Origin: a phage
Reading direction: 5' to 3' (one strand)
Sequence record: PX436236.1
Length of the DNA: 64,000 nt
Under the pieces are notes generated by a model. The model was not told where the DNA came from. It saw nothing but the letters and a program-made list of their open reading frames with translations, and did not search any database. This document shows, one piece after another, positions 16,286 to 40,692 of this stretch (the first letter of the stretch is position 1; the number at the start of each line of letters is the position of its first letter). The position numbers and the translations under genes were made by a program.

Positions 16286-16325
16286 TTGATAGGTCTATAG
16301 TATCATTTCTACCGGAGATGTAAAC
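16286..16325 (-). promoter_or_regulatory. PeSL-type early promoter/stem-loop repeat
   Basis: Minus-strand GTTTACA-N16-TACTAT with conserved core TGATACTATAGACCTATCAA; inverted repeat TCTCCGGTAG/CTACTGGAGG pairs the promoter spacer with the SD. Confidence 0.5.
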
Positions 16326-16327
16326 AA

Positions 16328-16669
16328 CTAATAGAAACTTTTTTCACCGGCTTGACCACTAAACCATGCGGATTGAGTGTTCTCTTTCCGTTGGTGTTCA
16401 ATACGAATGCGATATTCATTCCTGATGGCGCAGAGTTCATCTCGGAAGTCGCCTGCCAACTTTACCTGCTTGCGGTCTAGATTTATTAAGGCCTGGGTGT
16501 TAACGGCCAAGCGCAGTCTCCTGAAGTCTCCTCCACTACACGGATTTTTATAGAATTTCTCAGAAAACTTAGTACTACATTCATTAATATAGTCTTCAAC
16601 AGACTGTTTCATAGCTTTGGAAAAAGTCTGACCTGCTTTATAAAGATTGTAAATAAATTGTTCAAACAT
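16328..16669 (-). CDS. Hypothetical protein
   Basis: 113-aa ORF. Confidence 0.4.
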   Translation of the reverse strand: MFEQFIYNLYKAGQTFSKAMKQSVEDYINECSTKFSEKFYKNPCSGGDFRRLRLAVNTQALINLDRKQVKLAGDFRDELCAIRNEYRIRIEHQRKENTQSAWFSGQAGEKSFY

Positions 16670-16678
16670 AATTCACCC

Positions 16679-17659
16679 TTATTTCAGAAGTGTAACTTCA
16701 GCGATTTCGCTCCAGTCATTTTTATCGGTGGCAATGAAGTCCGCCAGATAAAGAGCTGTACGTAATGATACGTTACGAAGACGAGATACATTAGCCTTCA
16801 TCCAGGACAGTGCTTGATAAGTCTCGGCATCAGTCAGACCACGGTTTTGCATCATATCAGTGGACAGGATAACGTCTTCAACACGGACCATAATCTCTTC
16901 GTTAGAGTGAACTCCGAGGTCTAAGTAAACTGAACGAGATACTAAAGCCTGGAGGTGTGGAGCAAGTTTAGTTCCACGCTCTAATTCACGGTCAATATCA
17001 ACGTTGGTGATGAACACGATGGTGCCTTCATACTCAAATTCTTTATCGATATTTTTATCATCAAGATAAGAACTTGAAGTGCTCCAGCACACCTTACGTT
17101 TTTCACCAGTATCCAATGCTGCTTTTAACAGGTTCAGGATATCCATATCAGAGAATACATCAACATCATCAATAAGAAGAACACTATTAGGGCCGCGGTT
17201 ATTCCAAAGCTGCTCGTAAAGACCGATTCCACTAATCTTTCCGTTGATTGATTTATATTCGATAGTTTCATTTTCGTGGGCATTCTGTAATGCTTTATCT
17301 AAAGAATACGTTTTACCAATACCTGCGGCACCAGAGATGATAAGGGAACGAATTTTACCATCGATGATTCCGTTAGTCATCATGTTCATTACTTTAAAAC
17401 GTTTGTTGATGCGGTGTTTCATTTCTTCAGAAGATTCGGTAACCACTACAGGAGCTTCAGCACCTTCGGTTTCGATATCAGATTTGAATACCCATACACC
17501 ACGTTCAACACCATCAATCTGTACGAATACCTTACCATCACCGAGGTGAGCTTCAGATTCATGAATTTTATTAGGGAACCAGGTTTTACCTGAACTCATG
17601 AACGTACCAGAGATTTCATTACCGCGATAGACACCTTTGTTGATTTTGATAGTTAACAT
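16679..17659 (-). CDS. P-loop ATPase (AAA-like)
   Basis: Walker A GAAGIGKTY and Walker B VLLIDDVD; start MLTIKINKG at 17659 (GGAG 7 nt upstream) or MENIML at 17671. Confidence 0.55.
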   Translation of the reverse strand: MLTIKINKGVYRGNEISGTFMSSGKTWFPNKIHESEAHLGDGKVFVQIDGVERGVWVFKSDIETEGAEAPVVVTESSEEMKHRINKRFKVMNMMTNGIIDGKIRSLIISGAAGIGKTYSLDKALQNAHENETIEYKSINGKISGIGLYEQLWNNRGPNSVLLIDDVDVFSDMDILNLLKAALDTGEKRKVCWSTSSSYLDDKNIDKEFEYEGTIVFITNVDIDRELERGTKLAPHLQALVSRSVYLDLGVHSNEEIMVRVEDVILSTDMMQNRGLTDAETYQALSWMKANVSRLRNVSLRTALYLADFIATDKNDWSEIAEVTLLK

Positions 17660-17685
17660 TATATTCTCCATTTCACTCAGTAGAT

Positions 17686-17725
17686 TTGATAGGTCCATAA
17701 TAACATGCTCTACGAGAGTGTAAAC
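17686..17725 (-). promoter_or_regulatory. PeSL-type early promoter (variant core)
   Basis: Minus-strand GTTTACA-N16-TATTAT followed by GGACCTATCAA. Confidence 0.45.
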
Positions 17726-17744
17726 TCTTTTTTGCACTAAACCC

Positions 17745-17766
17745 AAAAAAGGCCCGAAGGCCTTTT
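17745..17766 (-). terminator. Hairpin terminator GGCC-ttcg-GGCC plus U-run
   Basis: Directly after the stop codon at 17768-17770; T-run on the minus strand. Confidence 0.5.
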
Positions 17767-17767
17767 A

Positions 17768-18778
17768 TCATTTATAATACGAGTTATGGTTTTCTAGGTA
17801 CACCTCTTCAACGAACTTGTCCCAGAATTTCATGTCTACCTTATCAGGCATACCATTCTTAGCGGCCCAGATAGCATTAGTTTCGACTTCATCTACAATA
17901 GCTTCAAGTTCAGCCTGCACATCTTTAAAAGCATGTAGCCCTTGTTTGATTTCAAGGATAAACGGTGCTGTACGTAAAGGATATTTGAGATCGCCGGTCA
18001 TATAGATTTCCTTCAACTGATAACCGGCACGATAAGCATGGCTCAGAGCTTTCCAATCGATACCTTCATTAGCTTCAGCCTTACGAGCACGTTCGCCATA
18101 TTCAGCATCAAGCTTATTCAGAGATTGCTTGAGCTCGATTAAAGACAAAGTAGTTTGGTACTTACGTCCTAGAACAGTATAGAACGTTTGAGGGCCTGTT
18201 TTCTCATGGTTATGGAATACCCATTCACAGAACTCATTTTCAGGGAGTCTGTGTTTGATATCTTCTACCTTAGTACGACGAAGTCTATCAGGGATTCCTT
18301 CTTGATAGTCAACCCACTGTTCAGGAATCTGGTTAACAATAGCCAGTACACCACGCAGTGCAGCTAGTCGAGAACCCTTAACACCATATTTAGAAGCTTG
18401 CTTACGGACGTACCCTAAATAGGCTTTCATGTTGGTTGTATAGAACCGTGAACGATTGTCTTGGATAAATTTCCATACACCAGGTAAATCAGATTTAACC
18501 ACCATTTCAGGTGGAGTGTGGAGCATATCCAGAGCAACGGTTTCGCCTTCAGCCGCTAGTTTAAAGAAATATTTCAGGCTGTAAAGCTCGTGGTCAACAT
18601 CATCTTTAGTGTTTTTGGAAGCAGTGTTATTCGTGTTCAGGTTGGTATGGTTCATAGCCGTACCTAACAGAATATCACGCGGATGTGGAACAAAGATTTC
18701 TTTAAAATCGACATCAGATTCTGGAGTACTTGTTCCATAAAGGTGGGAGCCAAAATATCCCTTCATAACTGTTCTCAT
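17768..18778 (-). CDS. Nucleotidyltransferase-fold protein (Pol-beta superfamily motif)
   Basis: N-terminal GSHLYGTSTPESDVD fits the GS-x(9-13)-DxD NTase signature; 336 aa. Confidence 0.5.
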   Translation of the reverse strand: MRTVMKGYFGSHLYGTSTPESDVDFKEIFVPHPRDILLGTAMNHTNLNTNNTASKNTKDDVDHELYSLKYFFKLAAEGETVALDMLHTPPEMVVKSDLPGVWKFIQDNRSRFYTTNMKAYLGYVRKQASKYGVKGSRLAALRGVLAIVNQIPEQWVDYQEGIPDRLRRTKVEDIKHRLPENEFCEWVFHNHEKTGPQTFYTVLGRKYQTTLSLIELKQSLNKLDAEYGERARKAEANEGIDWKALSHAYRAGYQLKEIYMTGDLKYPLRTAPFILEIKQGLHAFKDVQAELEAIVDEVETNAIWAAKNGMPDKVDMKFWDKFVEEVYLENHNSYYK

Positions 18779-19542
18779 TATTCACCTCTTTCATAGTCTT
18801 CAATAAATTGCATAATTAAACGTTGGTAGTTAGATTTGGGATATCCTAATTTACTAATATAAGTACCAAAAGCCCCACGCTTAGGCCTATTTAATTTAAC
18901 CCATAAAGAATAAAGCAAATCATAATCTTGCCAATGTTTTCCTATTCTTTGCTTTGCTTTAGAAGCATCAGATTGCCTCTTTTTAGTTTCCGGATTATTT
19001 AGAGATTTCTTAACAGCATTAGAATGCCTTTCTCTAACATCAGGGCGTTTAAATGCTTCTTTAATAGCTTTAGAAATTTTCTCTTTAACTTCAGGACGGT
19101 TTTGAGCTTCTATTTGAGCGGCAGACATTTTATCTTTTATTTCCGGTAGACTCATAGTTATAGAACGTTTATTTCTATACTCTTCAGTCTTCCATATTTC
19201 TTTCATCGCATTTGAATGAATTTCTGAAAATTTTTCTCTAACTAATTGGTATCCTCTAGAAGTTAGTTTAAGATTTCTTCCTAGAGAATCCTCACCGAAG
19301 CTATAAAACGACCACCAAGCATAAATTAGTCCAGAAGAATCAGAATGAATTCTAGCTAGAAGCCAGTGTGCTATAAAATGTTCTCTGGCTGTCAACAGAA
19401 CTAAATTATTAGGTTCATCACTCCCACCAATACATGATGGGAGTATATGATGGGACTCTGTATAAAAATTTAATTTGGATTTGTCTAATCCTCTAAGTTT
19501 ACCTCTTTGGATTAGACTATCATAAAGCTTGGTATAATTCAT
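18778..19542 (-). CDS. HNH homing endonuclease (Mob-like)
   Basis: ESHHILPSCIGGSDEPNNLVLLTAREHFIAHW HNH core followed by repeated basic DNA-binding modules. Confidence 0.65.
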   Translation of the reverse strand: MNYTKLYDSLIQRGKLRGLDKSKLNFYTESHHILPSCIGGSDEPNNLVLLTAREHFIAHWLLARIHSDSSGLIYAWWSFYSFGEDSLGRNLKLTSRGYQLVREKFSEIHSNAMKEIWKTEEYRNKRSITMSLPEIKDKMSAAQIEAQNRPEVKEKISKAIKEAFKRPDVRERHSNAVKKSLNNPETKKRQSDASKAKQRIGKHWQDYDLLYSLWVKLNRPKRGAFGTYISKLGYPKSNYQRLIMQFIEDYERGE

Positions 19543-20006
19543 TATGGGTTTGTTTTGTTCTCGAAGTGGATTACCGGACAGACCTTAGATTTACGAGCTT
19601 TAATGTATTGAATAACGATGTTTTCTTTAGTTTCTCGGCCTTCACGCTCAGCTTGAATACGTTGCCATTCCTTTTCTTCTCTACGGGCATCATACCATGC
19701 GTGTAAATTCATCACACCGAATGCCAAACCAATGGATAGCGCAATAATAAGAGCTATTGAAACCAATCCTAAAACAAACCCTAGACTCAACAGAACAGGG
19801 GTACTTAATACAAAGAAATGCTCTAATACACCAACACCTGCAACAGTTAATCCAAAAAGCGTACTACCTGCAACAACAGCACAAGCAAAACAAGCCCAAA
19901 CCATTTTCCAGAAGTAAGCACATAAAGAGTGCGGTCGAGAATGACTGTCATAAAAACGGTCATGAAGTTTAGCGTGCCAAGAGTTTGCATTGATAATCAT
20001 AATCAT
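19542..20006 (-). CDS. Multi-pass membrane protein
   Basis: 154-aa ORF with several hydrophobic helices. Confidence 0.4.
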   Translation of the reverse strand: MIMIINANSWHAKLHDRFYDSHSRPHSLCAYFWKMVWACFACAVVAGSTLFGLTVAGVGVLEHFFVLSTPVLLSLGFVLGLVSIALIIALSIGLAFGVMNLHAWYDARREEKEWQRIQAEREGRETKENIVIQYIKARKSKVCPVIHFENKTNP

Positions 20007-20016
20007 AATATTTTCC

Positions 20017-20577
20017 TTAAGAGTTCATAGTTGGGATAACAGAGTTCAGATAAGAGACTAAAACTTTTAGTTCGTCTTTAGTAAATACCACTTCACTTTC
20101 ACCATCGTGTCTTTGGGTCAAGGATAACAAATCACGGCCCTGATGTTGATACACGGTTAATTCAGTATCATAATTCAGTTCTTCTTCATCACCTTCAAAG
20201 GTTTCACTAGAACGAATCACGGCATCTTGGCCAGGGACTTTCCATTCAACTTCCGGCTTGCATTCTTCCTGGAACAGTTTGAAAATACAATCAAAGAATT
20301 TATCAGAATCGCTGATGCTCAGACATTCAATACCATTTTCCAGATTAAACCCGGTTTCATTTTTATAGATATAGGCAAACATATCATCATTGATATCGAT
20401 AGGAGCACTAGCCCGACCGTTAAGATAATCGTGTCTATCTAAAACCATTAAATCATAAAGCGGTTTAATATCAGCGATAGTCAGTACGATTTTATCGTCT
20501 TCTTGTGAAAGCTCAATTGCGTTATTAACTACTTCAGCGGACAGTTCGCCAAACAATTCAGTTGTTTCAATAATCAT
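20017..20577 (-). CDS. Hypothetical acidic protein
   Basis: 186-aa ORF rich in D/E. Confidence 0.4.
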   Translation of the reverse strand: MIIETTELFGELSAEVVNNAIELSQEDDKIVLTIADIKPLYDLMVLDRHDYLNGRASAPIDINDDMFAYIYKNETGFNLENGIECLSISDSDKFFDCIFKLFQEECKPEVEWKVPGQDAVIRSSETFEGDEEELNYDTELTVYQHQGRDLLSLTQRHDGESEVVFTKDELKVLVSYLNSVIPTMNS

Positions 20578-20587
20578 TTTCTATTCC

Positions 20588-20785
20588 TCAACGGTTATGT
20601 TTTAAAATACTATAAAGCTCTTCGACTTGGTCTGCATTCAGACAAATCATATCATTTTCTTGTTGGAGCGTGATTCCACCTTTTTCTTCCCAATCTTTAA
20701 CAAAGACGTCATCGTCAGATTCTTCAACATCTGCTAAAAGGGCAATCACACCATCTTCAGAACAACCATTTGGATCGTATAACAT
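20588..20785 (-). CDS. Hypothetical acidic small protein
   Basis: 65-aa ORF. Confidence 0.3.
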   Translation of the reverse strand: MLYDPNGCSEDGVIALLADVEESDDDVFVKDWEEKGGITLQQENDMICLNADQVEELYSILKHNR

Positions 20786-20906
20786 TTACAATTTCCTCAC
20801 TAACCATGAAAAGAATAAACCGATTAAAATAGGGCCTATAATCATTGTTGACCAAGCCCAAGGTTCAAGATAGTAAATCATCTTCAGGCTCCTGTGCCAT
20901 CAGCCA

Positions 20907-21089
20907 TTATGCTTTCAACTCATTAAGATACTCAACCAAGGCCGCTTTAGAATTAGCCAAATCTCGTTTACACTGCTCTATTCCGGAATATGAATAGCCT
21001 TCGCAATGTTCTACTGCACTATCATAAGAATCACGTTCAATAGCAGTAGCTAGTTTAAGGATTTGTTCAATCTGTTCAGTAGTTAACAT
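20907..21089 (-). CDS. Hypothetical small protein
   Basis: 60-aa ORF. Confidence 0.3.
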   Translation of the reverse strand: MLTTEQIEQILKLATAIERDSYDSAVEHCEGYSYSGIEQCKRDLANSKAALVEYLNELKA

Positions 21090-21093
21090 AATA

Positions 21094-21330
21094 TCACCAG
21101 TATTTGTTGATAGTAGAAATTAATTCTTGGGCTTGGGTAGTCTTCAGTTTACATCCACAACCCTTTAATGTGTCTTTAAGGAGCCACGGTTCCTTGAGCT
21201 CGTCCTTTTCTAGACGAATTCTGTATCCTCGATAATCAGCGAAGATACTTCGGTCGTCGAATATCTTAATCTCAAGGATACGACCGTTGATTTCATATTC
21301 TAATGAAACCGTAGTACTTGTAAGTTTCAT
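21094..21330 (-). CDS. Hypothetical small protein
   Basis: 78-aa ORF downstream of a PeSL promoter. Confidence 0.35.
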   Translation of the reverse strand: MKLTSTTVSLEYEINGRILEIKIFDDRSIFADYRGYRIRLEKDELKEPWLLKDTLKGCGCKLKTTQAQELISTINKYW

Positions 21331-21347
21331 ACTGTTCTCCTCATTAG

Positions 21348-21387
21348 TTGATAGGTCTATAGTATCATGTTCCTAGAGGATGTAAAC
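21348..21387 (-). promoter_or_regulatory. PeSL-type early promoter/stem-loop repeat
   Basis: GTTTACA-N16-TACTAT plus conserved core and GAGGAG SD. Confidence 0.5.
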
Positions 21388-21396
21388 ACCTAAACG

Positions 21397-21422
21397 AAAA
21401 AAGGTCCCACCGAAGTGAGACC
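21397..21422 (-). terminator. Hairpin terminator
   Basis: GGTCCCAC-cgaa-GTGAGACC followed by a T-run on the minus strand, just after the stop at 21428. Confidence 0.5.
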
Positions 21423-21427
21423 TTTGA

Positions 21428-21811
21428 TTATTCTAACGTCAGCAAATACTTAGTCTGGTAAAAGACGCCAGTGATATCGTCCAAAGTCGACTGGATGGCC
21501 TTAGGAAGTGTATCATAGATTTTATCAGATGCTTTAAGAAGCTCGTCAAGGAAATCTACAGGGTCCTTAGGCAAGTCTGAAGCAGACGGTAATGATGCTT
21601 TATATTCTTTGCCACTGAATCCAAGATATTGCTCACTAAATTGGTCCAGCGGTCCTTGAACTTCTACATAATAGAAGTCATACGCTTTGTGTCTTGCATA
21701 GCTTTTGGTTTCTAAATGGGCTGACTTAAAATAGGCTAAAGAAACCAGTAGCCAACCAATATAAGAATCCACTTCAGACCCTCGACTGGGTACGAAATCA
21801 TTGAACTTCAT
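21428..21811 (-). CDS. Hypothetical protein
   Basis: 127-aa ORF. Confidence 0.4.
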   Translation of the reverse strand: MKFNDFVPSRGSEVDSYIGWLLVSLAYFKSAHLETKSYARHKAYDFYYVEVQGPLDQFSEQYLGFSGKEYKASLPSASDLPKDPVDFLDELLKASDKIYDTLPKAIQSTLDDITGVFYQTKYLLTLE

Positions 21812-22091: not shown

Positions 22092-22183
22092 ACAAAAGTC
22101 CTTTGTTGTTTTATACTATTTGCCTTTCGGCCTTAACCGATAGCGATTACCAAAAGCTAAAGCTCTACGGTTAGTATTATTAT

Positions 22184-22462: not shown

Positions 22463-22469
22463 AATACCC

Positions 22470-23042: not shown

Positions 23043-23051
23043 ATTACCTTC

Positions 23052-24766: not shown

Positions 24767-24778
24767 GAGACCTCATTA

Positions 24779-25237
24779 TTAAAGATAGATTACTTTCGTG
24801 CTGGTTTTACCTTCTAAACGTTTAGAGTTAACAAATGCCATACGACATTTAAGGGAATATCCTTTATCAGGATGTTTACGGTCTACAGTCATACCTAGCC
24901 ATAAGGTTTTATCGGTAATTTCGAGACGCAATGGGCGATACACTTTACCAGGGACAATTTCGGATTCTACATCAGGTAGAGGTTCCTGGATTAAAAATTC
25001 ATGAATTTCTTTAACATGGTTATGGAGTTGCTTGAATAAAGCAAAAACGTATTTTTCGTCGATTTCACGTTGGATAGCACGGTCCAACAAGTGATTAGAG
25101 TACTTAATAAAGAAGGCTGGGACTCCGCTCTTGATGGCGGCTTTTTTGATGGACGTATTCAGTTCACGGAATTCGGTTTCGAACTGACGACGTAATTTAT
25201 TGCGGCGGATGAATACTTCTGAATTAATTTCTGACAT
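24779..25237 (-). CDS. regB: RegB endoribonuclease
   Basis: 152-aa ORF ...EVFIRRNKLRRQFETEFRELN...HLLDRAIQREIDEKYVF...LEITDKTLWLG; T4 RegB-like. Confidence 0.85.
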   Translation of the reverse strand: MSEINSEVFIRRNKLRRQFETEFRELNTSIKKAAIKSGVPAFFIKYSNHLLDRAIQREIDEKYVFALFKQLHNHVKEIHEFLIQEPLPDVESEIVPGKVYRPLRLEITDKTLWLGMTVDRKHPDKGYSLKCRMAFVNSKRLEGKTSTKVIYL

Positions 25238-25254
25238 TTTGTAATCTCCTGTAG

Positions 25255-25294
25255 TTGATAGGTCTATAGTACCACGTCTACAGGAGATGTAAAC
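25255..25294 (-). promoter_or_regulatory. PeSL-type early promoter/stem-loop upstream of regB
   Basis: GTTTACA-N16-TACTAT; inverted repeat TCTCCTGTAG/CTACAGGAGA pairs the spacer with the regB SD. Confidence 0.5.
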
Positions 25295-27317: not shown

Positions 27318-27734
27318 TTAAGCGTAAATAGCCTTGCCATAATGTTTGTACCAGGTAGGACGCTGTGCAATTTTTTCATCCAAACGGGTCTGAGATATAG
27401 CAATAGAAGCTTCGTGTGGAGTATAGTCACCACGGAATTCCTGAGGAATGTCACTAATGTCCTGGACAGTAGTATCCTTGATATTAAAACCACGTTTTAA
27501 ACATTCGGCTATAAGCTCAATTTGTCGCTTACGTAAAAATTCAAGCTTATCGTAAAAGAATGTAACATGGCCTGTGCCAAGGATAAAAGTAGGACTGATT
27601 TTGAAATCACGGACATGTTTACCATTAGCAACATGCTTACGAACTGCACCGAAAACACGTGGTAATTCACGATATTCAGCCATTAAGTGTTGGTCAGCCA
27701 ATTCAGATACTAAGGTAAGGTTGATACGAGTCAT
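27318..27734 (-). CDS. denV: Endonuclease V (pyrimidine-dimer DNA glycosylase) DenV
   Basis: Start [35 protein letters not shown] at 27734 (GGAG RBS); 138 aa; T4 DenV-like. Confidence 0.9.
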
Positions 27735-27794
27735 TTTAGTGTTCTCCATGTTTGTATGAGAACACTATATCACAACTATCGTAAAAATAAACCG

Positions 27795-28138: not shown

Positions 28139-28735
28139 TTAATTACCACGGGCTGCATTAGCAACGGCGTAAGCGTACTGAATATTAGCGTCTTTAAACG
28201 TACCTTTAGAGGTATCTAGTTCTGCCTTAAAGCCGCCTTTAACCATAACATCAGCAAATTCTTTACGGAAAGTCATTGCATCAAGACCTTTCCATGCGGA
28301 TTTATGCTTGGCAAATTCAAGACCGGCGAAGTTAACTGCTTTAGCCAATTTATTATCAATAGTCCATTTACCTGCTTTAGGTACAAACACCGGGCCTTTC
28401 TGTTTAGAGAACAGTTTTAAATTCCAGCGACGAAGGTCACCGTCAGCTTTAACAAAAGCTGCGTCCAAGTTACTAGCAACAACATCTTGGATATGGGCAA
28501 ATTTAAGTCCATCAGCTTCAATATTTAGGTCGTTACGCCAGCGAAGTCCTTCCCAGGCGAAAGCTTTAAAGTCGGAAGCTTTTGTAGCCAAGTACCGTTC
28601 AATAGGAGCTGTTTTAGCGTCAAAACCGTTTCCTGGGTTGTCAACGCCGTTTCCTTTGTAAGTCCACTCATCTTTATTAATGCCTTGGACCTTTCCTACA
28701 GAAGCTTCGGCGATAAATTCTTTATACGTTTTCAT
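28139..28735 (-). CDS. ipIII: Internal protein III-like (CTS-bearing)
   Basis: MKTYKEFIAEASVGK...; 198 aa; between the ipII-like gene and e. Confidence 0.6.
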   Translation of the reverse strand: MKTYKEFIAEASVGKVQGINKDEWTYKGNGVDNPGNGFDAKTAPIERYLATKASDFKAFAWEGLRWRNDLNIEADGLKFAHIQDVVASNLDAAFVKADGDLRRWNLKLFSKQKGPVFVPKAGKWTIDNKLAKAVNFAGLEFAKHKSAWKGLDAMTFRKEFADVMVKGGFKAELDTSKGTFKDANIQYAYAVANAARGN

Positions 28736-28782
28736 ACGGGTTCCTTAAAGGAAAATATTTTAATTGGTCTGTTCAAGTAACT

Positions 28783-28816
28783 GTAGATATACTATCACAA
28801 TTCTAGGAGATGTAAA
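28783..28816 (-). promoter_or_regulatory. Early promoter GTTTACA-N16-TAGTAT (PeSL variant)
   Basis: Minus-strand promoter upstream of the ipIII-like gene. Confidence 0.4.
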
Positions 28817-28817
28817 C

Positions 28818-31699: not shown

Positions 31700-31912
31700 T
31701 TACTTTTTGTTGAAAAAGTACATTTTACCTTTAGGGGATAAGGATACACGAAGTGCGTTACCAATACCAACTGAACATTTAACCAGGTCAGCAGATTTCA
31801 ATTCACCAAATGCTTGACGAAGGTCACCATCACGAGTGTTAACCATCAGGCATTTAGCACCAGCTGCACGAACTTCGTTTAACATGTTGATTGCTTGGTT
31901 AGAAAGTTTCAT
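31700..31912 (-). CDS. Hypothetical small protein
   Basis: Start MKLSNQAINML at 31912 with GGAGAA SD; PeSL promoter upstream. Confidence 0.4.
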   Translation of the reverse strand: MKLSNQAINMLNEVRAAGAKCLMVNTRDGDLRQAFGELKSADLVKCSVGIGNALRVSLSPKGKMYFFNKK

Positions 31913-31938
31913 TTTATTCTCCATTTCACTCTGTTGTT

Positions 31939-31978
31939 TTGATAGGTCTATAGTATCACACCTATAGACCTTGTACAC
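31939..31978 (-). promoter_or_regulatory. PeSL-type early promoter/stem-loop repeat
   Basis: GTGTACA-N16-TACTAT with conserved core; GGTCTATAG...CTATAGACC inverted repeat. Confidence 0.5.
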
Positions 31979-31990
31979 TGTTTTGTGCAA

Positions 31991-32950
31991 TTATTTTTCG
32001 AAAGGACGAATTAAATGATGGTTATCTTGGAAACGCTTGATGTAGTCGTTTTCACCTAAAGTCTTATACATATTCACTACAGCTTGGTAGTTTTCCCAGG
32101 CGTACTCGCGGAACCAACCTGAAGTGATTGAGGTACACACTTTCTCAAGAGCCATATAAAAACTTAATGATGGTGAAATATTGAAGTCATTAGGAACCTG
32201 TGAACGTTCTAGTGCCAGGACACAAGTTTCTTCATATACACCAGCCAGTTTAATAGCTTCAGGCAAAGCCTCGAACTTCTCACGAGAGGTCATGACTTCA
32301 GAACCTTCCTTCATATAAAAGGTATATGCAGGGCGTCCAGCCAATGCTACTGCTTCATGAATAGAGTCATGGTCCAGCGTATAAATGGTATCATTAAAGA
32401 ACGATGATTTGTTTACGTCCAATTTAGGGTGAGAATAGCTCAACGTTTCTTTTTGACGTTGCAGCATAATTTCCTGGAGTTCTTCGTTAAGGGTGATACC
32501 TTTATTACGAAGGTATTTGATGTGTGACATAGTTTTCAAGAAGAACGGATTATTCTTAAGGAAACGATGAGAGGTTTTGATAGCCAGACAGATATCAGGG
32601 GTGGCCCAATAGAAACCAGTAAGACGGTCCTTTTTAATATGATTTTCAGCATATTTCAGGAGACGATAGCTTGAAGTGAAATCTTCGTCTTGAAGCTCAC
32701 CGGTAATTTCTCGTACGTTAGTCAGAGCACGAACGATATAAGCTTCAAAATAGGTTTCTTTACCATTATGCATACATTTGAAAGCCTGGACATCAGGATT
32801 GTCAACGTGTACATGGGCGCCGAACATACGTGCTTTAAAGTGATTCCATGAGCCTTGGTCGGCAATGAAATCCCAATCAGAATTTTCGATATGCTTACTT
32901 TCAATCAGACCAGCGTGGTGCAGTGCACGAGAACCAATAACTAACATCAT
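31991..32950 (-). CDS. Hypothetical protein (319 aa), possible nucleotidyltransferase fold
   Basis: Start MMLVIGSRALHH at 32950 (GAGGAAAAT RBS); GS...SDWD arrangement loosely fits an NTase motif. Confidence 0.4.
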   Translation of the reverse strand: MMLVIGSRALHHAGLIESKHIENSDWDFIADQGSWNHFKARMFGAHVHVDNPDVQAFKCMHNGKETYFEAYIVRALTNVREITGELQDEDFTSSYRLLKYAENHIKKDRLTGFYWATPDICLAIKTSHRFLKNNPFFLKTMSHIKYLRNKGITLNEELQEIMLQRQKETLSYSHPKLDVNKSSFFNDTIYTLDHDSIHEAVALAGRPAYTFYMKEGSEVMTSREKFEALPEAIKLAGVYEETCVLALERSQVPNDFNISPSLSFYMALEKVCTSITSGWFREYAWENYQAVVNMYKTLGENDYIKRFQDNHHLIRPFEK

Positions 32951-32969
32951 AATATTTTCCTCAGTAAAC

Positions 32970-33209: not shown

Positions 33210-33252
33210 ATGTTCTCCTCATGTTTGTGTAGGGTAATAGTAACATGATTTT

Positions 33253-33603: not shown

Positions 33604-33612
33604 GTGGTTAAA

Positions 33613-34058: not shown

Positions 34059-34069
34059 TTTTTATCACC

Positions 34070-34282: not shown

Positions 34283-34291
34283 TTTATTTCC

Positions 34292-34573: not shown

Positions 34574-34582
34574 AAAATTTCC

Positions 34583-35223: not shown

Positions 35224-35752
35224 TTTGAACCTCTTTAGCGTATTCGCGACATTCAGCAATAAAACGATTAAGCTTACGTTGTTGTTTACGACTTTCTAAT
35301 GTGTACTCATTAGCCAAAATAATAAGCTCATCTTTATCGTAATTTTTAATATCAGAGTAAGATGGGCGACGGTCAACCATTCCAAATACATCACCATTTT
35401 CTAAAGCTACATAACATACTAAATGGTAATCATCGTCTGCCATATTAAGAAGCACACAATCAGCGCTCTCGTTTAAAGAATATACCGAATAACGTAGTCC
35501 AGCGAATTCCACTCGTTGAATAGCCAGATTTACGTCAATAATTTCCAAAGCATCTTCAAAAGAAAGGTCTTCAGCTAAAGCAAAAATAAAAGGTAATTTG
35601 GTAGTATCGCCACGGCTAGATGTTCTGCTTAAGAAATCGTTTGAATAGCCTAGGTCTTGGCGAATTCTATAAAGAACTGAATTAGTTTCATGTGAAAGAC
35701 CACTATGCTTAAACCAATCAATATTTGATATCAGGTCGTCATATAAACTCAT
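35216..35752 (-). CDS. Hypothetical protein with C-terminal KLNRFIAECRE motif
   Basis: 178-aa ORF; stop overlaps the next gene's start. Confidence 0.4.
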   Translation of the reverse strand: MSLYDDLISNIDWFKHSGLSHETNSVLYRIRQDLGYSNDFLSRTSSRGDTTKLPFIFALAEDLSFEDALEIIDVNLAIQRVEFAGLRYSVYSLNESADCVLLNMADDDYHLVCYVALENGDVFGMVDRRPSYSDIKNYDKDELIILANEYTLESRKQQRKLNRFIAECREYAKEVQNA

Positions 35753-35800
35753 AATATTCTCCTCTCCTCCAAATAGGGAGACCGAAGTCTCCCAGTAACA

Positions 35801-36394
35801 TTACTTAAGTGAATTAATGTAGTCTTCGATATCAGCAGAAGTCGTATCCATTCCAACTTGTGGGCCTTTAAACGTTTCTACACGAAGCAGGGTGTCTTCA
35901 ATATCAATCTTAGTCAATGCAGCGATTTCAACAACATCATCGGCAGTAGCAATACCCAGGGCAGCCATATTACGAGTTTCACGAATGTACTCAAGCTTAA
36001 CCGCTAGTTCCTGGCGAGAGTCATCAAGTTCCTTAACCTTCAGTTTAATTTCATTACGCATTTCGATATAATCATCGGCTTTCTTACGAAGCTGGGTAGC
36101 TGTACGACGATAAAGGAGGCCAAGTTTAGCATGTACCTGGACATCAGCGCCTCCGGCAATCAGTTTACGAATTTCACGTTCTTTAGAAGCAGCGAGCTGG
36201 TCTTTTTCATTAGCCAATGCACGAATACGTTTTTCTTCATTCACAGACTTAACATGAGCAGTCTGGAGTTCAGTGATTTTATCAATCAGAGTAGAAGCAG
36301 CTTTTGTGTATTGGTCTTCGATTGACAGGTTCTGAGCCATTGCGGTGCCCAGTTTAGAACGAATGAATTCAACGATTTTCTTTAAAGTGTTCAT
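35801..36394 (-). CDS. Coiled-coil protein (197 aa)
   Basis: Long heptad-like helical sequence; promoter TTTACA-N17-TATAAT at 36438-36467 with a hairpin enclosing the -10. Confidence 0.4.
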
Positions 36395-36470
36395 AGTATT
36401 TCCTTCAGTTGGTTAACGTTTTGTAATCCATGAGGACATTATACCCTGTCCTCTGAGGTTTGTAAACATT

Positions 36471-36869
36471 TTATTTCATTTTTGCGAGGCAAATTTCATT
36501 GGCTTCCCATTGAGCTTGCTTAATAATAGCTTTGGATACAGGAGCCCTTTGGCCATAAGTTTTTGACGTTGAGAGAACAATATGTTTGTTTGCTTCATTA
36601 TGCCAGCCCCATGATTTTTCGCCATGAGTACCTTTAACTACAGCTGACACCTCAACAGAGCAACCACCATCAGAAATCTTGGTTTCGACAACCCATTCAT
36701 TTCTCTCAGCAGCTTCAATTTCTAATCTAGTTTTTTCTTCATACATCGCGGCCCAATCAGTTTTTGCCAAGTTGAAAGTAAGAGCTTTCTCTAGTTCTTT
36801 GGCATATTTTTGTTGTTCAGGTGTTAATGAATTATACAACTCTTGCATTTCTTTATCTTCGATATTCAT
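36471..36869 (-). CDS. Hypothetical protein
   Basis: 132-aa ORF; promoter TTTACA-N17-TATTAT with a GGGCTCAT/ATGAGCCC hairpin upstream. Confidence 0.4.
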   Translation of the reverse strand: MNIEDKEMQELYNSLTPEQQKYAKELEKALTFNLAKTDWAAMYEEKTRLEIEAAERNEWVVETKISDGGCSVEVSAVVKGTHGEKSWGWHNEANKHIVLSTSKTYGQRAPVSKAIIKQAQWEANEICLAKMK

Positions 36870-36927
36870 TATGTTCTCCTCAAATTATGGGCTCATAATA
36901 TCTTAATCATGAGCCCATGTAAACGTT

Positions 36928-37191
36928 TTATTTCATATTATTGAAATAATTTTCTGCATCAAAATCATTACCATGGTAAACTTTGGTAGACGATTTGGCG
37001 TAACCTTCAGCTGAGAACATATTAATCACAACTTTAATTGTATACCACTGTCCATCTTCATTACCCATTACTGCATAGGTTTCATACACCGGGTGTTCAG
37101 GACCGATAACCTTAATATCGTTAACTGTGGCACCAAATTCTTCCGGAACACATTTCATAAAGAAATTAAACACTTCACCATAATTATCCAT
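36928..37191 (-). CDS. Hypothetical small protein
   Basis: Start MDNYGEV at 37191 with AAGGAGAG SD. Confidence 0.4.
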   Translation of the reverse strand: MDNYGEVFNFFMKCVPEEFGATVNDIKVIGPEHPVYETYAVMGNEDGQWYTIKVVINMFSAEGYAKSSTKVYHGNDFDAENYFNNMK

Positions 37192-37215
37192 TTTACTCTC
37201 CTTCACTCTGTTGTT

Positions 37216-37255
37216 TTGATAGGTCTATAGTATCATGTTCTACGAAAGAGTAAAC
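37216..37255 (-). promoter_or_regulatory. PeSL-type early promoter/stem-loop repeat
   Basis: GTTTAC-N17-TACTAT with the conserved core. Confidence 0.5.
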
Positions 37256-37279
37256 ATCTTTTTTAAACCTTTTAGAAAC

Positions 37280-37307
37280 AAAAAAGGCCCAACCTTTCGG
37301 AAGGGCC
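37280..37307 (-). terminator. Hairpin terminator (GGCCC...GGGCC plus U-run)
   Basis: Same hairpin sequence as at 38418-38438; just after the stop at 37313. Confidence 0.5.
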
Positions 37308-37312
37308 TAGAA

Positions 37313-37867
37313 TCAGTTCTTGTAGAACCGGAATGGGTTTATGTGGAAGGCTAACATAGCCTTAGGGATTTTACGAGACAAAAGACTCTTAAGTTTCCAA
37401 CCACAGTATACACGAAGGTAAAAGGTAATCCCACCTACTTTAAGATACGGAACTGAAGCAAAGACTCCCCATGCTTCGTCATTCCACATCCATAACCATC
37501 CATGATGAGCTTTATCAGGAGAACCGGATTCAACGTCAGGATTACCACGATAATGGAATTCTGAGCTACAATCGCGTCCAAGTTTATGGTAAGCAAAGTT
37601 ATAAGCTTTATTTCGCCATAGCCAAGCTACCCTCTGGAGATAAACACCGCCCGGCATTTTCCTGATTTTAGCCCAACGTTTAATATGACCTTTGTCACCG
37701 TCAATTGGATTATCGTATGTCATCATCCAATCAAAGCCGTACGGTAATTTACCTGTCTTTTTATTGTGGAAAGGAACCACAAATGGGGCAAGGATAACAG
37801 CCAGAACCATAGAGATAAAATCTAGTGGGACCAACAGAACCCAACTCAAATATTTTAAAAGTTTCAT
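37313..37867 (-). CDS. Signal-anchored or membrane protein (184 aa)
   Basis: Start MKLLKYLSWVLLV at 37867; the longer ORF to 37972 would run through a terminator hairpin. Confidence 0.4.
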   Translation of the reverse strand: MKLLKYLSWVLLVPLDFISMVLAVILAPFVVPFHNKKTGKLPYGFDWMMTYDNPIDGDKGHIKRWAKIRKMPGGVYLQRVAWLWRNKAYNFAYHKLGRDCSSEFHYRGNPDVESGSPDKAHHGWLWMWNDEAWGVFASVPYLKVGGITFYLRVYCGWKLKSLLSRKIPKAMLAFHINPFRFYKN

Positions 37868-37885
37868 ATATTTCTCTAAGTTAAC

Positions 37886-37906
37886 CAAAAAGCCCCAGAT
37901 GGGGCT
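37886..37906 (-). terminator. Hairpin terminator AGCCCCA-tct-GGGGCT plus U-run
   Basis: Immediately after the internal-protein gene stop at 37911. Confidence 0.5.
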
Positions 37907-37910
37907 TTCG

Positions 37911-38375
37911 TTATTTGATTTGTTTAGCAGACCAGATACGGTCTTTGATGATTTTCTGAATATCTTCAACATACTCTAAGTCGTGAGCATGTGGATTATC
38001 TTTGAAGCTATGTGCTCGTGCCAGTTTCTGGCCTTCTGTTTTGATTACTAAAAGCTCTTTAAGAATTGCTTCATACTTAGAAATAATTCCTTTGGCGATA
38101 TTTTTTTCTTGAGCGGCTTTAGGGTCCGCTTTTGACGCAGGTGCTTTACCTGTAGCTTTCTGGAACAATTCACCTGATGCAGCTAGGCTTTTAAAAACTC
38201 GGCTAACAGTATTAGCATTAGTAAAACCTTCGGCTTTAAAATCTTTAATAAAACGGAAACGTTCTTCATCAGAGGCGTCTTTGTAAGAATATTTACCTGC
38301 TTGAATTGCTGCAATCGCAGCGGCTTTTACATCTGAACTAGATTGTTCAGTCAAAAATTCATTGTAAGTTTTCAT
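37911..38375 (-). CDS. Internal-protein-type virion cargo protein (CTS MKTYNEFLTEQ), no T4 counterpart recognised
   Basis: N-terminal CTS; 154 aa; own late promoter and flanking terminators. Confidence 0.55.
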   Translation of the reverse strand: MKTYNEFLTEQSSSDVKAAAIAAIQAGKYSYKDASDEERFRFIKDFKAEGFTNANTVSRVFKSLAASGELFQKATGKAPASKADPKAAQEKNIAKGIISKYEAILKELLVIKTEGQKLARAHSFKDNPHAHDLEYVEDIQKIIKDRIWSAKQIK

Positions 38376-38402
38376 ATTATTTCCTAAGTTAGTTTACTAC
38401 AT

Positions 38403-38410
38403 ATTTATAC
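38403..38410 (-). promoter_or_regulatory. T4-type late promoter TATAAATA
   Basis: Minus-strand TATAAATA about 25 nt upstream of the internal-protein gene start. Confidence 0.5.
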
Positions 38411-38438
38411 AAAAAAAGCCCAACCTTTCGGAAGGGCC
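38411..38438 (-). terminator. Hairpin terminator downstream of the tRNA cluster
   Basis: GCCC..GGGC hairpin with GNRA-type loop and a 7-nt U-run on the minus-strand transcript. Confidence 0.5.
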
Positions 38439-38489
38439 TTTAACCTAGGGTAACCTTGTCGGGGTTCCACCTGCTAGGCAAGTGTTTGT

Positions 38490-38562
38490 ACGAAACGCCG
38501 GGATTCGAACCCGGTTATTAAGTAGTTGACGCCACTCAATATTTTTAAAAGGCCATATCTCG
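38490..38562 (-). ncRNA. tRNA-like element (possible degenerate tRNA or stable RNA)
   Basis: Perfect T-arm CCGGG-TTCGAAT-CCCGG, 6/7 acceptor pairing and canonical 73-nt spacing, but D and anticodon stems pair poorly. Confidence 0.25.
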
Positions 38563-38820
38563 ACCATATCCGAACGTTCCGTCAAAAACGCTACTCGGCT
38601 TACGGCAAAGATATTTCCTCGAATCGATAATTCGGTGCGCCGTTTCTGCTGTGATGTAAGGGGACGTTAACAGATCGTAAAGATTTGTTAATGCCAGTCC
38701 TTACTCAGGGAACATCAGTCCGACGACTTACCGGTAGCGACCCGGTTTCTTGTTTGTTGCGCCGGTGAATGCTGGTAATCAGTCTTCATACGACGGCTTG
38801 ACTATATAATAGTCTTCATT

Positions 38821-38895
38821 TGGTATCCCGCCCTGGGATCGAACCAGGACCGCAAACTTAGAAGGATCGTATGCTATCCATTACACCAGCGGGAC
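38821..38895 (-). tRNA. tRNA, probable Arg (anticodon UCU)
   Basis: Cloverleaf on minus strand: acceptor GTCCCGC/GCGGGAT, T-arm CCTGG-TTCGATC-CCAGG, anticodon loop CTTCTAA, encoded CCA. Confidence 0.7.
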
Positions 38896-38900
38896 GTAGT

Positions 38901-38977
38901 TGGTGACCCAGACCAGATTTGAACTGGTAACCTTTCCCTTATGAGGGGACTGCTGCTAACCATTGAGCTACAGGGCC
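38901..38977 (-). tRNA. tRNA with anticodon CAU (Met or Ile2)
   Basis: Acceptor GGCCCTG, D-arm TAGCTCAATGGTTAGC, anticodon loop CTCATAA, T-loop TTCAAAT, encoded CCA. Confidence 0.7.
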
Positions 38978-38982
38978 TTAAA

Positions 38983-39255
38983 TCAAACTACAAATCCAGC
39001 AGGAGCATTATCATCTTTAGCCATGTGCTGAATTGTATGATAAGTCATTTCTTCAGGAGCAACCAGATAAGCCGCAGCGTTAACTAGTGGAATTATTTTT
39101 GGTTTAGCGAATGTGCTATCGGCAATTGCCATAAAGGGCTCGCCGTCGGTCTCAACTTCACCAAATTGACATTCATACGAAATAGAACAACGTTTGGTAG
39201 TTGTTGTCTTGGTTTCTGGGTCGTAAAAAGCTAATTTTAATACTAACATAAACAC
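38983..39255 (-). CDS. Hypothetical protein
   Basis: 90-aa ORF ending 6 nt upstream of the tRNA cluster. Confidence 0.35.
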   Translation of the reverse strand: MFMLVLKLAFYDPETKTTTTKRCSISYECQFGEVETDGEPFMAIADSTFAKPKIIPLVNAAAYLVAPEEMTYHTIQHMAKDDNAPAGFVV

Positions 39256-39428
39256 CTCAAATAAAATTAAGTAAAGTAAGTTTGATTAATAGACCTTGTC
39301 TATTATGAAAGGCTCTTTGAGGGAAGAACCTTTGGTAATAGAGGGTTACTTAATAATGTTAGAGTAATAATAACACATTACTCTTAAAGCATATTACTAT
39401 TTTTAGGAATAGTCTGGTCAAATTTGAT

Positions 39429-39719
39429 TCATTGTGGCCACATATTAATGTAATCAAGTTTAATAGAAGCAATCTTCAAAGGATTTTTAAAGATGTCGTA
39501 TTCGATCAATCCGTTTTCAGTTGCGGTGTAGAAAGTAAAGTTAACAGAATTATAACGGCGACCATTAACTTTTAGTTTAACGTCGCTTGAACTACGACCA
39601 ATATTAACCTGTTGGACATCAAGCACAGCACCTTTGCCAAAGTTGCGAATCAGTAGCTCTGCTGCAACCTGGTCTGAATTATAGCCATTCTCTGGATTAG
39701 TAACCTTAACGTATAGCAT
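39429..39719 (-). CDS. Hypothetical protein
   Basis: 96-aa ORF. Confidence 0.35.
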   Translation of the reverse strand: MLYVKVTNPENGYNSDQVAAELLIRNFGKGAVLDVQQVNIGRSSSDVKLKVNGRRYNSVNFTFYTATENGLIEYDIFKNPLKIASIKLDYINMWPQ

Positions 39720-40100
39720 TTAACCCTCGTCTACAATAGTATGGGTATTAGCATTAACAATCTGCCACCAGTCAAAACGATTGGAACCGTAAAGAGGGTT
39801 ATTCTCATTTTCTTTAATGATATCGCGCAGTTCATCTTCAGTAGCGGCCTTTGCGATTAAGTCGGCATAACCGCCACGAGGGTAATAGTTATCACCCGCA
39901 AAGAGCAAAAAGTTTGTTTTGATATTCTTGAATTCTTCAAGTGTAATAACGGACCCATTGGGTTGAACAATATCCACATAACTATACCCTAATTCCTGGG
40001 CTTTATCTACCGCCTCAAGCAGGGTGTCGTGTGCCCACCCAATTTGACAATCTGGTTTTTCAGATGGATTTGCCTGATAATCTGCATACACTTTATACAT
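39720..40100 (-). CDS. Hypothetical protein (126 aa)
   Basis: Start MYKVYADYQ at 40100 with AAGGTGAG SD. Confidence 0.4.
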   Translation of the reverse strand: MYKVYADYQANPSEKPDCQIGWAHDTLLEAVDKAQELGYSYVDIVQPNGSVITLEEFKNIKTNFLLFAGDNYYPRGGYADLIAKAATEDELRDIIKENENNPLYGSNRFDWWQIVNANTHTIVDEG

Positions 40101-40101
40101 T

Positions 40102-40287
40102 TTACTCACCTTTAGAGATTTTATCCATAACAAAAGAAATTGAACCAATTAAAAATGCCACTACTAAAGAGATTATATTCTCGGAAGTTGAAAGCATATC
40201 GAGCATGAATCCTGCAAACATACTAAAGCCAAAAGCGGTAACAGCGGCCAGTGCAGTAACATTTCTAATTAATTCACAACGTTTCAT
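40102..40287 (-). CDS. Small membrane protein (61 aa)
   Basis: MKRCELIRNVTALAAVTAFGFSMFAGFML...; GGAGAA SD; PeSL promoter upstream. Confidence 0.4.
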   Translation of the reverse strand: MKRCELIRNVTALAAVTAFGFSMFAGFMLDMLSTSENIISLVVAFLIGSISFVMDKISKGE

Positions 40288-40312
40288 TTTATTCTCCAAT
40301 CACTCATTTGTT

Positions 40313-40352
40313 TTGATAGGTCTATAGTATCACACCTATAGACCTTGTAAAC
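40313..40352 (-). promoter_or_regulatory. PeSL-type early promoter/stem-loop repeat
   Basis: GTTTACA-aggtctataggtgtga-TACTAT; spacer identical to the copy at 31939-31978. Confidence 0.5.
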
Positions 40353-40354
40353 AA

Positions 40355-40627
40355 TTATTTTAGATAAATTGCATACTTTTTATAACCAGCTGTTTCGTGA
40401 CGCAACCCTTTTTCATTAGCAAAACGTTCAATATTGTTAATTTGATTCTGGTCGAGTTCTGAAGTATCAAAAACAAAAAAGTTTCGCTTATTGCCTAAAG
40501 TTACGTGATTAGTCAAATCGATGTTATAGAGATGATTTATATCATCAATCATAGTCTTAACAGATTTGTTAATTTTTACTTCCTCATTAAGAATAGATTC
40601 AGCGATAAATTCTTGATAAGTTTTCAT
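40355..40627 (-). CDS. ipI: Internal protein I-like (CTS MKTYQEFIAES)
   Basis: N-terminal CTS; 90 aa; lies beside 57B as T4 ipI does. Confidence 0.55.
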   Translation of the reverse strand: MKTYQEFIAESILNEEVKINKSVKTMIDDINHLYNIDLTNHVTLGNKRNFFVFDTSELDQNQINNIERFANEKGLRHETAGYKKYAIYLK

Positions 40628-40650
40628 TTTGATTTCCGTGCGGTTAGTTT

Positions 40651-40692
40651 GTTTACAAGGTCTATAGTATCATGCCTATAGACCTTGTAAAC
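40651..40692 (-). promoter_or_regulatory. Palindromic PeSL promoter
   Basis: GTTTACAAGGTCTATAG-gcatgatac-CTATAGACCTTGTAAAC near-perfect palindrome carrying GTTTAC on both strands. Confidence 0.45.

Follow-up and report, generated by a model that had tools for sequence, protein, structure and literature searches.

The window analysed here is a 64,000-nucleotide stretch of phage DNA (sequence record PX436236.1), whose minus strand carries, between positions 16286 and 40692, at least eight copies of a composite promoter unit. These units are probably, at a probability of about 0.7, T-even-type early promoter cassettes for host sigma-70 RNA polymerase, of the promoter-early stem-loop (PeSL) kind, each with a device against read-through: an intrinsic terminator just upstream, a hairpin around the -10 hexamer (class 1) or a hairpin that takes up the Shine-Dalgarno sequence (SD; class 2). 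The cassettes are real and well organised, but they are no new kind of element. A first-pass annotation of this DNA, made by a model from the letters alone, had proposed PeSL-like cassettes; its stem-loop reading was incomplete, lacking the class 1 hairpins and the upstream terminators of three copies. New with respect to it are the two mutually exclusive, covarying hairpin classes, of which the commoner, class 1, had been missed, the exclusivity between hairpin and terminator, and the identity of the cassette 20-mer to the T4 denV promoter. By megablast, 30-42 kb of the window shows 98% identity to Escherichia phage vB_EcoM-E33 (E33) and 91-97% identity to QL01, WG01, IME281 and JS10, which places the window, as judged from these identities, in Dhakavirus (JS98-like Tevenvirinae) together with these five phages.

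Architecture and placement of the cassettes

The core of the unit is the 20-mer TGATACTATAGACCTATCAA, which has eight matches at up to three mismatches in the window, five of them exact and all on the minus strand, at 16286, 17686, 21348, 25255, 31939, 37216, 40313 and 40653. It has no match in 100 dinucleotide-preserving shuffles of the window (0 expected), and the recurring minus-strand unit of at least eight copies claimed in the first pass, with its 40-nt coordinate ranges, is correct. All eight copies show the same layout, a GTTTAC -35 (GTGTAC in 31978 only), 14 nt and then the 20-mer, TG-A-TACTAT-AGACCT-ATCAA, formed by an extended -10, the -10 hexamer TACTAT, the discriminator AGACCT and ATCAA at the putative start site. 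The hexamer TA(C/T/G)TAT, which had been described as a separate element before the 20-mer, is wrong as such and corresponds to positions 4-9 of it. In 8/8 copies the -35/-10 spacer is 17 nt long and ends in the TGn extended -10, and an ATG preceded by a GGAG, GAGG or GGAA SD lies 15-31 nt past the 20-mer. All of them are directly upstream of open reading frame (ORF) starts and in the same orientation as the ORF; SD and ATG follow each copy, as had been stated. An A-rich stretch of 10-12 nt, judged by inspection only, precedes the -35 (aaaataatt, ttaaaaaggt, aaaaaagat, caaaaaaga, aataaagca), and a generic sigma-70 scan also detects the cassettes, with TG extended -10s.

The eight cassettes, named by their upstream end, and the three terminators are the following; hairpins are folds of the stretch from the -35 to the ATG, with z against shuffles.

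16268-16325, minus strand: cassette 16325, before the nrdC.8 orthologue (ORF 15746-16270); class 2 hairpin, -17.6 kcal/mol, z = -3.50, in which spacer TCTCCGGTAG pairs with SD-containing CTACTGGAGG, with two G-U pairs.
17657-17725, minus strand: cassette 17725, before the nrdC.10 orthologue; variant 20-mer TGTTATTATGGACCTATCAA; no significant embedded hairpin, z = -0.43.
17747-17766, minus strand: intrinsic terminator, AAAAGGCCTTCGGGCCTTTT and then a T-run, directly upstream of cassette 17725.
21328-21387, minus strand: cassette 21387, before a 78-amino-acid ORF (21094-21330); weak 5-bp CCUC.../GAGG pairing, z = -0.11.
21400-21425, minus strand: intrinsic terminator, 11-bp stem and then TTTCGTTT, directly upstream of cassette 21387.
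25235-25294, minus strand: cassette 25294, before regB (ORF 24779-25237); class 2 hairpin, -18.3 kcal/mol, z = -3.84, ATCTCCTGTAG with CTACAGGAGAT, a perfect 11 bp that covers the GGAG SD.
31910-31978, minus strand: cassette 31978, -35 GTGTAC, before a 70-amino-acid ORF (31700-31912); class 1 hairpin, -15.4 kcal/mol, z = -2.78.
37189-37255, minus strand: cassette 37255, before an e.8-like ORF (36928-37191); no significant embedded hairpin, z = -0.07.
37280-37308 including the T-run, minus strand: intrinsic terminator, GGCCCTTCCGAAAGGTTGGGCC and then TTTTTT, upstream of cassette 37255.
40285-40352, minus strand: cassette 40352, before the trna.4 orthologue (ORF 40102-40287); class 1 hairpin, -16.5 kcal/mol, z = -3.45; spacer as in 31978.
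40625-40692, minus strand: cassette 40692, before an internal-protein gene, MKTYQEFI... (ORF 40355-40627); class 1 hairpin, -27.4 kcal/mol, z = -9.34.

Cassettes with the same promoter and leader precede unrelated genes, and the genes downstream include early-gene orthologues: regB, nrdC.8, nrdC.10 and trna.4 orthologues and an internal-protein gene. A relaxed scan finds further minus-strand GTTTAC-N17/18-TAnnAT sites without the full 20-mer at 36924, 36467, 28817, 27792, 27329, 13749, 11367, 9045, 8341 and 7917, and no site with a perfect GTTTAC -35 among the late genes. The further degenerate copies announced in the first pass are found at 9045, 27329 and 28817. Its statement that cassettes flank most of the novel ORFs is overstated: the region between 11 and 44 kb contains eight cassettes and about six other GTTTAC promoters for 69 minus-strand ORFs. 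Four sites of this group are described below.

36867-36924, minus strand: GTTTAC promoter without 20-mer; 13-bp hairpin ATGGGCTCATGAT/ATTATGAGCCCAT around the -10, -20.1 kcal/mol, z = -5.49.
27732-27792, minus strand: promoter-like cassette 27792 of denV; SD sequestered by AGTGTTCTC/GAGAACACT, z = -2.59.
28733-28817, minus strand: degenerate cassette 28817, GTTTAC...TGATAGTAT, before an internal-protein gene (MKTYKEFI), at a homology breakpoint versus all four relatives compared (JS10, QL01, E33 and IME281).
8985-9045, minus strand: degenerate copy 9045, ATTTAC...TATAGTCTATCCTATCAAC, outside 16286-40692; spacer TCTCCTCACGTGT is complementary to SD-containing ACACATGAGGAGA, as read directly from the sequence.

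Two smaller observations concern the motif itself. The SDs of cassettes 31978, 40352, 17725, 25294 and 37255 show GGAG followed by an A-rich stretch (e.g. AUGGAGAAUAAAAUG), which is the type of site cut by the RegB endoribonuclease in T4 early messenger RNAs, and one of these cassettes, 25294, drives regB itself. The segment GATACTATAGA resembles by eye the SP6/T7 core ACTATAG of single-subunit RNA polymerase promoters; this likeness is taken to be fortuitous, as it requires a gap of 2 nt and the fit to a sigma-70 promoter is exact.

Occurrence in T4 and other phages

In an exact-match scan of IMG/VR, each Dhakavirus genome has 8-12 copies of the 20-mer, without exception on a single strand. 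The scan suggested a lineage-specific Dhakavirus motif, which was ruled out by T4 itself and by the 763 phage records that one 69-nt cassette matches in blastn, belonging to Tequatrovirus and, with cassette variants, to Mosigvirus, Kanagawavirus and Jiaodavirus. Since T4 and these records carry cassette matches, the repeated unit is, to judge from the matches, the T-even early-promoter consensus. T4 contains 42 GTTTAC-N17/18-TAnnAT sites, all on one strand, of which the commonest version, TGGTACTATACAACTATCAA, is present six times, and its denV promoter, GTTTACATCTCCTGTAGGTATGATACTATAGACCTATCAACTACAGGAGAACACTAAAATG, shows the identical 20-mer and the same spacer/SD inverted repeat. In published descriptions of T4-type early promoters, GTTTAC occupies -36 to -31, the UP region is A-rich and C residues stand at -3 to -1 (Nolan 2006, PMC1524935). 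Their consensus further has TGn and a TAnnnT hexamer (T-12, A-11 and T-7). They have the same hexamers, spacing and TGn extended -10 as the window cassettes and nothing essential differs; the discriminator is predominantly AGACCT in the Dhakavirus group and mostly ACAACT in T4.

At denV, the window cassette (27732-27792) differs from the 20-mer cassette present there in JS10, QL01, E33, IME281 and T4. Homology to each of the four relatives breaks off precisely at the window denV ATG (27737). The replacement cassette, too, has its SD enclosed in a hairpin.

Two hairpin classes and their covariation

Five of the eight window copies contain an embedded hairpin far better than shuffles (z of -2.8 or lower), and the predicted folding of cassettes 37255, 21387 and 17725 is no better than shuffles (z about 0). 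In class 1 (31978, 40352 and 40692) the spacer arm AGGTCTATAG pairs with CTATAGACCT, which comprises the -10 end and the discriminator, and the hairpin encloses the -10; in 40692, the three mismatches to the 20-mer prolong the class 1 palindrome through the -35 and give a 17-bp stem. In class 2 (25294/regB and 16325) the spacer pairs with the leader and the SD. The spacer had been described as an inverted repeat of the SD region in several copies, which stands strongly at 25294 and 16325 (z = -3.8 and -3.5) and fails at 21387, 17725 and 37255. The identical spacer noticed in the copies at 31939 and 40313 is indeed shared, AAGGTCTATAGGTG, and is the 5' arm of the AGGTCTATAG/CTATAGACCT hairpin, not of an SD pairing.

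The covariation set contains 109 distinct cassettes from the window, four relatives of about 49 kb and IMG/VR fragments, of which the 87 with a recognisable -35 were aligned. Both helices beat 500/500 column shuffles and all slid registers in percentage of paired cells, both-side changes and covariation score. Pair counts are bimodal: 29 cassettes show at least 8/10 class 1 pairs, 14 show at least 10/11 class 2 pairs and none shows both. The class 1 arm pairs include AGGTCTATAG/CTATAGACCT, GGGCT.TAG/CTATAGCCC and AGGCTATGG/CTATAGCCT, and those of class 2 include TCTCCTGTAG/CTACAGGAGA, TCTCCATTAG/CTAATGGAGA, TCTCCAGTAG/CTACTGGAGG and TCTCCTCATG/CATGAGGAGA. Changes are compensatory, for example from AGGTC/GACCT to GGGC/GCCC and to AGGC/GCCT; with a discriminator C at the variable position the spacer shows G in 11/14 cases, and T4 contributes many additional arm sequences of both classes. 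This variety of arms is hard to explain without selection for pairing.

It is quite unlikely, and already disfavoured by this covariation, that the units are early promoters only, with RNA polymerase contacts accounting for the long conserved block and the inverted repeats being incidental. Conservation in T4-type early promoters does extend well past the hexamers, including the C at -3 to -1 (Nolan 2006, PMC1524935), and three of the eight window copies are without significant structure; against this, both arms change jointly with pairing kept, the counts are bimodal with two exclusive partners, and it is the cassettes with a terminator that have no hairpin. Operators were also considered, the -10 palindromes serving a dimeric phage protein that shuts off early promoters. 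The shut-off of T4 early promoters is described as incompletely understood (PMC3014915) and the class 1 palindrome has its centre of symmetry in the -10 region, but the half-sites vary (AGGTC, GGGC, AGGC, TAGGGTA, GAGCT), each with a matching partner, and fewer than half of the cassettes have the palindrome. Half-sites that differ in sequence yet stay complementary are the signature of base pairing, so a protein operator is very improbable and was rejected. Class 1 hairpins were likewise rejected as canonical intrinsic terminators, since the stem precedes AUCAAAACAA, with no U-tract.

A third common spacer family, (A/T)TCTGCTTTAAACA, is present in many cassettes of the relatives (aligned rows with CTTTAAACA) and forms no stable hairpin. 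It usually follows the terminator-plus-UP block ttttttgggtttagtgcaaaaaagt, and shows a GTTTA...TAAAC symmetry with the -35. On the plus strand (40650-40693), the UP element reads as its complement, CCTTTTTAAA, behind the 17-18-bp palindrome of cassette 40692, so that the palindrome scores as an intrinsic terminator of antisense transcription.

Upstream terminators and accessibility of the SD

In the window, an intrinsic terminator lies upstream of the three cassettes that have no hairpin (17725, 21387 and 37255), and only of these. The same distribution is found in 194 distinct GTTTAC promoters from Dhakavirus loci, T4 and others, where a strong embedded fold is present in 5/52 promoters with an upstream terminator versus 90/142 without it. 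Terminator and hairpin are mutually exclusive (odds ratio 0.06, p = 5e-12), also after collapsing the set to 95 orthologue groups (p = 4e-5). Because they exclude each other, this trade-off argues that the stem-loop deals with read-through transcription. It also agrees with the PeSLs, which have one stem-loop per element in variable position (PMC2839356).

The proposed unit consists of an A-rich UP region, the GTTTAC -35, a 17-nt spacer, TGn-TACTAT, AGACCT-ATCAA, a short leader, a GGAG-type SD and the ATG. Host RNA polymerase would start about 7 nt past the -10, at a predicted position that gives a leader of 20-31 nt. Transcription arriving from upstream would be dealt with in one of three ways: by an intrinsic terminator just upstream (17725, 21387 and 37255), by a hairpin with the spacer as 5' arm and the -10 end plus discriminator as 3' arm (31978, 40352 and 40692), or by a hairpin with the spacer as 5' arm and the leader plus SD as 3' arm (25294/regB and 16325). 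With their 5' arm upstream of the start site, both hairpins would form only in read-through RNA. The SD hairpin would hide the SD in read-through RNA and leave it free in the promoter's own transcript; the -10 hairpin may act by attenuation or by protecting the 3' end of the upstream message.

The probability that the stretch from SD to AUG is unpaired was compared between read-through RNA and the promoter's own transcript, with the start assumed 7 nt past the -10.

16325: 0.31 in read-through RNA, 0.56 in own transcript.
25294: 0.49 in read-through RNA, 0.64 in own transcript.
21387: 0.26 in read-through RNA, 0.67 in own transcript.
27792: 0.20 in read-through RNA, 0.70 in own transcript.
13749: 0.37 in read-through RNA, 0.71 in own transcript.
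40692 (class 1): 0.78 in read-through RNA, 0.79 in own transcript, unchanged.
40352 (class 1): 0.63 in read-through RNA, 0.62 in own transcript, unchanged.
31978 (class 1): 0.14 in read-through RNA, 0.65 in own transcript, rising.

The first-pass annotation had proposed that read-through transcripts mask the SD and that those started at the promoter leave it open. As a predicted mechanism, this SD sequestration is plausible for class 2 only, where covariation supports it in 14/87 cassettes that include 25294 and 16325.

At 31905-32018 (minus strand), folding of the read-through RNA predicts a helix between TCATTTAATTCGTCCTTTC, where the upstream gene ends, and GAAATGGAGAATAAAATGA, with the SD and AUG; the class 1 hairpin of 31978 is nested within this predicted helix. 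The pairing may be due to chance, because the upstream sequence of phage 005 differs at the same site.

The hairpins of T-even early promoters appear to be selected, to act in the sense strand and to trade off against terminators, with clean evidence from covariation. A wider and more tentative proposal, on which we would not yet rely, is that throughout Tevenvirinae every early promoter carries exactly one of three interchangeable devices (terminator, -10 hairpin or SD hairpin). If true, each accessory gene would be expressed only from the transcript of its own promoter, and the one-device rule would be what lets promoter-plus-gene modules move freely.

Gene content at cassette junctions

Colinearity between 11 and 44 kb was compared by blastn with JS10, QL01, E33 and IME281. 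The comparison shows 32 distinct interruptions, of which 13 have an end inside a cassette and cluster at 17.7, 25.3, 27.7-28.8, 36.9-37.3 and 40.3-40.7 kb; cassettes make up 4.6% of the sequence and 14/69 gene junctions (20%). Breakpoints lie inside cassettes, for instance at 17705 and 40339, and extra ORFs of the relatives are bracketed by cassettes in tandem. At the 17.7-kb site an additional ORF, not the same one in JS10 as in E33 (MYAIKNY... and MNIKAPF...), comes with a cassette of its own that stands in tandem with that of nrdC.10. ORF 36928-37191 is missing from JS10; here the junction lies in the SD region of cassette 36924 and that of cassette 37255. E33 has a different gene between cassettes 40352 and 40692; its junction, 40339, is within the spacer and leads to a chimeric cassette in which pairing is lost. 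Because the same unit of about 90 nt precedes unrelated genes, it would offer portable homology for gene swaps between related phages. Junctions of the kind expected from the modular shuffling that the first pass had attributed to the cassettes are clear in these single cases (17.7 kb, JS10 and E33), and their enrichment depends on the null model; the association of cassettes with junctions appears real in individual cases and is statistically only suggestive. A Pfam scan of five variable ORFs beside cassettes gives no match.

An alternative is a role of the inverted repeats at the DNA level, in which cruciforms or single-strand hairpins lead to breaks, slippage or endonuclease VII cutting and so to recombination hot spots. 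In RB49 a crossover has been mapped within the loop of a PeSL stem-loop (Arbiol 2010, PMC2839356), several window breakpoints are within cassettes (17705 and 40339) and most class 1 stems are perfect palindromes. We nevertheless hold a DNA-level role to be unlikely: the stems tolerate G-U pairs, which are C-A mismatches on the other strand, the class 2 arms are 24 nt apart, a poor geometry for cruciform extrusion, and the trade-off with transcription terminators indicates a role at the RNA level. In 37 T4 promoters, moreover, folding favours the sense over the antisense strand by 3.4 kcal/mol, beyond the 1.0 kcal/mol of random same-strand windows (p = 0.0016).

Several results weigh against early promoter cassettes with read-through devices and against their part in gene exchange. 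Three of the eight window copies are without a significant hairpin, the sense/antisense asymmetry is not significant in the window alone (p = 0.16), and the cassettes compared are related, so the covariation counts overstate the number of independent events. The role of the class 1 hairpin is a guess, as no U-tract lies behind the stem, and start sites, early timing and read-through are predictions from the sequence. As to gene exchange, 19/32 indel events are at cassette-free, plain stop/SD/ATG junctions, and the cassette enrichment, with p = 0.007 when one junction is counted per event, is not significant under a two-ended null. Genes with their own promoter may also be easier to gain or lose, without recombination driven by the cassette.

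Comparison with known systems

PeSLs are defined by a sigma-70-like early promoter with about 17 nt between its -35 and -10 boxes, an A-rich upstream region, a stem-loop and an SD with ATG at the 3' end (Arbiol 2010, PMC2839356; Comeau 2014, PMC4122927), and have been described for RB49/phi1 (Arbiol 2010, PMC2839356) and for PST/T4 and nt-1/KVP40 (Comeau 2014, PMC4122927). The published elements are further characterised by promoter and terminator/attenuator activity, by mini-circles that arise through recombination between cassettes, and by a preference for variable genes and indel junctions. The match to PeSL elements suggested in the first pass is borne out, all sequence-level defining features being present in the window cassettes. 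Both are composite intergenic units that run from an A-rich region to the SD and ATG, with an early promoter and one stem-loop, located upstream of the promoter, inside it or overlapping it; both recur before unrelated small ORFs and, here in individual cases, at indel or replacement junctions of close relatives. They differ in that the window promoter is of T4 type (GTTTAC...TACTAT) and its stems are AT-rich, whereas RB49 PeSLs have a near-perfect TTGACA/TATAAT and polyG/polyC stems. The class 2 hairpin, which spans the start site and pairs with the SD, is not among the five stem-loop (SLS) positions of Arbiol 2010 (PMC2839356), where elements of the JS98 group are only mentioned in passing. 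Neither the SD-spanning class nor the strict terminator/hairpin exclusivity is spelled out in Arbiol 2010 or Comeau 2014, the PeSL papers being the only ones compared for this. Rfam, at gathering thresholds, finds only two transfer RNAs (tRNAs) in the window, the cassette matching no known RNA family.

In T4 e, soc, 49 and I-TevI, a long transcript hides the SD and AUG in a helix and the transcript of the gene's own promoter, which lies within or after the 5' arm, is translatable (PMC3014915). These hairpins follow the same sequestration logic as 25294, 16325, 27792 and 9045, where the start site is predicted. In the T4 genes the internal promoter is late (gp55, TATAAATA) and the hairpin delays expression; in the window the promoter is early sigma-70 and the 5' arm is the -35/-10 spacer itself. 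Because the proximal promoter is early and not late, the SD hairpins of the window are an analogue, not a member, of the T4 hairpins that sequester the translation initiation region (TIR).

In T-even phages, promoter and leader sequences are conserved on the flanks of the internal-protein (IP) loci (Repoila et al. 1994, as quoted in Arbiol 2010, PMC2839356). Like these flanks, cassettes 40692, 28817 and 27329 precede MKTY(Q/K)EFI genes, with the conserved IP N-terminus, and are at breakpoints versus all relatives; unlike them, the window cassette type also serves the non-IP genes regB, nrdC.8, nrdC.10 and trna.4.

Hairpin covariation and the terminator trade-off sharpen the PeSL concept, a modest wider point that adds no new kind of system. 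For annotation, the cassettes mark early transcription units and module boundaries in JS98-like phages, a therapeutically used group, and indicate which small ORFs of no known function have a predicted promoter of their own.

Other features of the window

Gene order on the minus strand, taken from the JS10 annotation and reaching to about 44 kb, is nrdC, tk, vs, regB, denV, ipIII, e, tRNA genes, 57B, 1, 3, 2 and 4, and late baseplate genes follow on the plus strand beyond about 44 kb. Two tRNA genes, Arg-TCT and Met-CAT, are located at 38821-38977 (minus strand); JS10 is annotated with three (Arg, Asn and Met). An ORF starting MKTYNEF, an internal-protein-like N-terminus, lies at 37911-38400 (minus strand) with the late-promoter motif TATAAATA upstream in place of an early cassette, and is absent from JS10 and IME281. 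The 254-amino-acid ORF at 18778-19542 (minus strand), part of which the E33 depositors labelled a homing endonuclease, has no Pfam match and is not associated with a cassette; it is present in E33 and absent from JS10, QL01 and IME281, as a clean 771-bp insertion (18782/19554). Between genes 3 and 2 (42824-42834), QL01 and E33 contain a 639-bp insertion that is absent from the window and is annotated in these phages as a homing or intron-like endonuclease.

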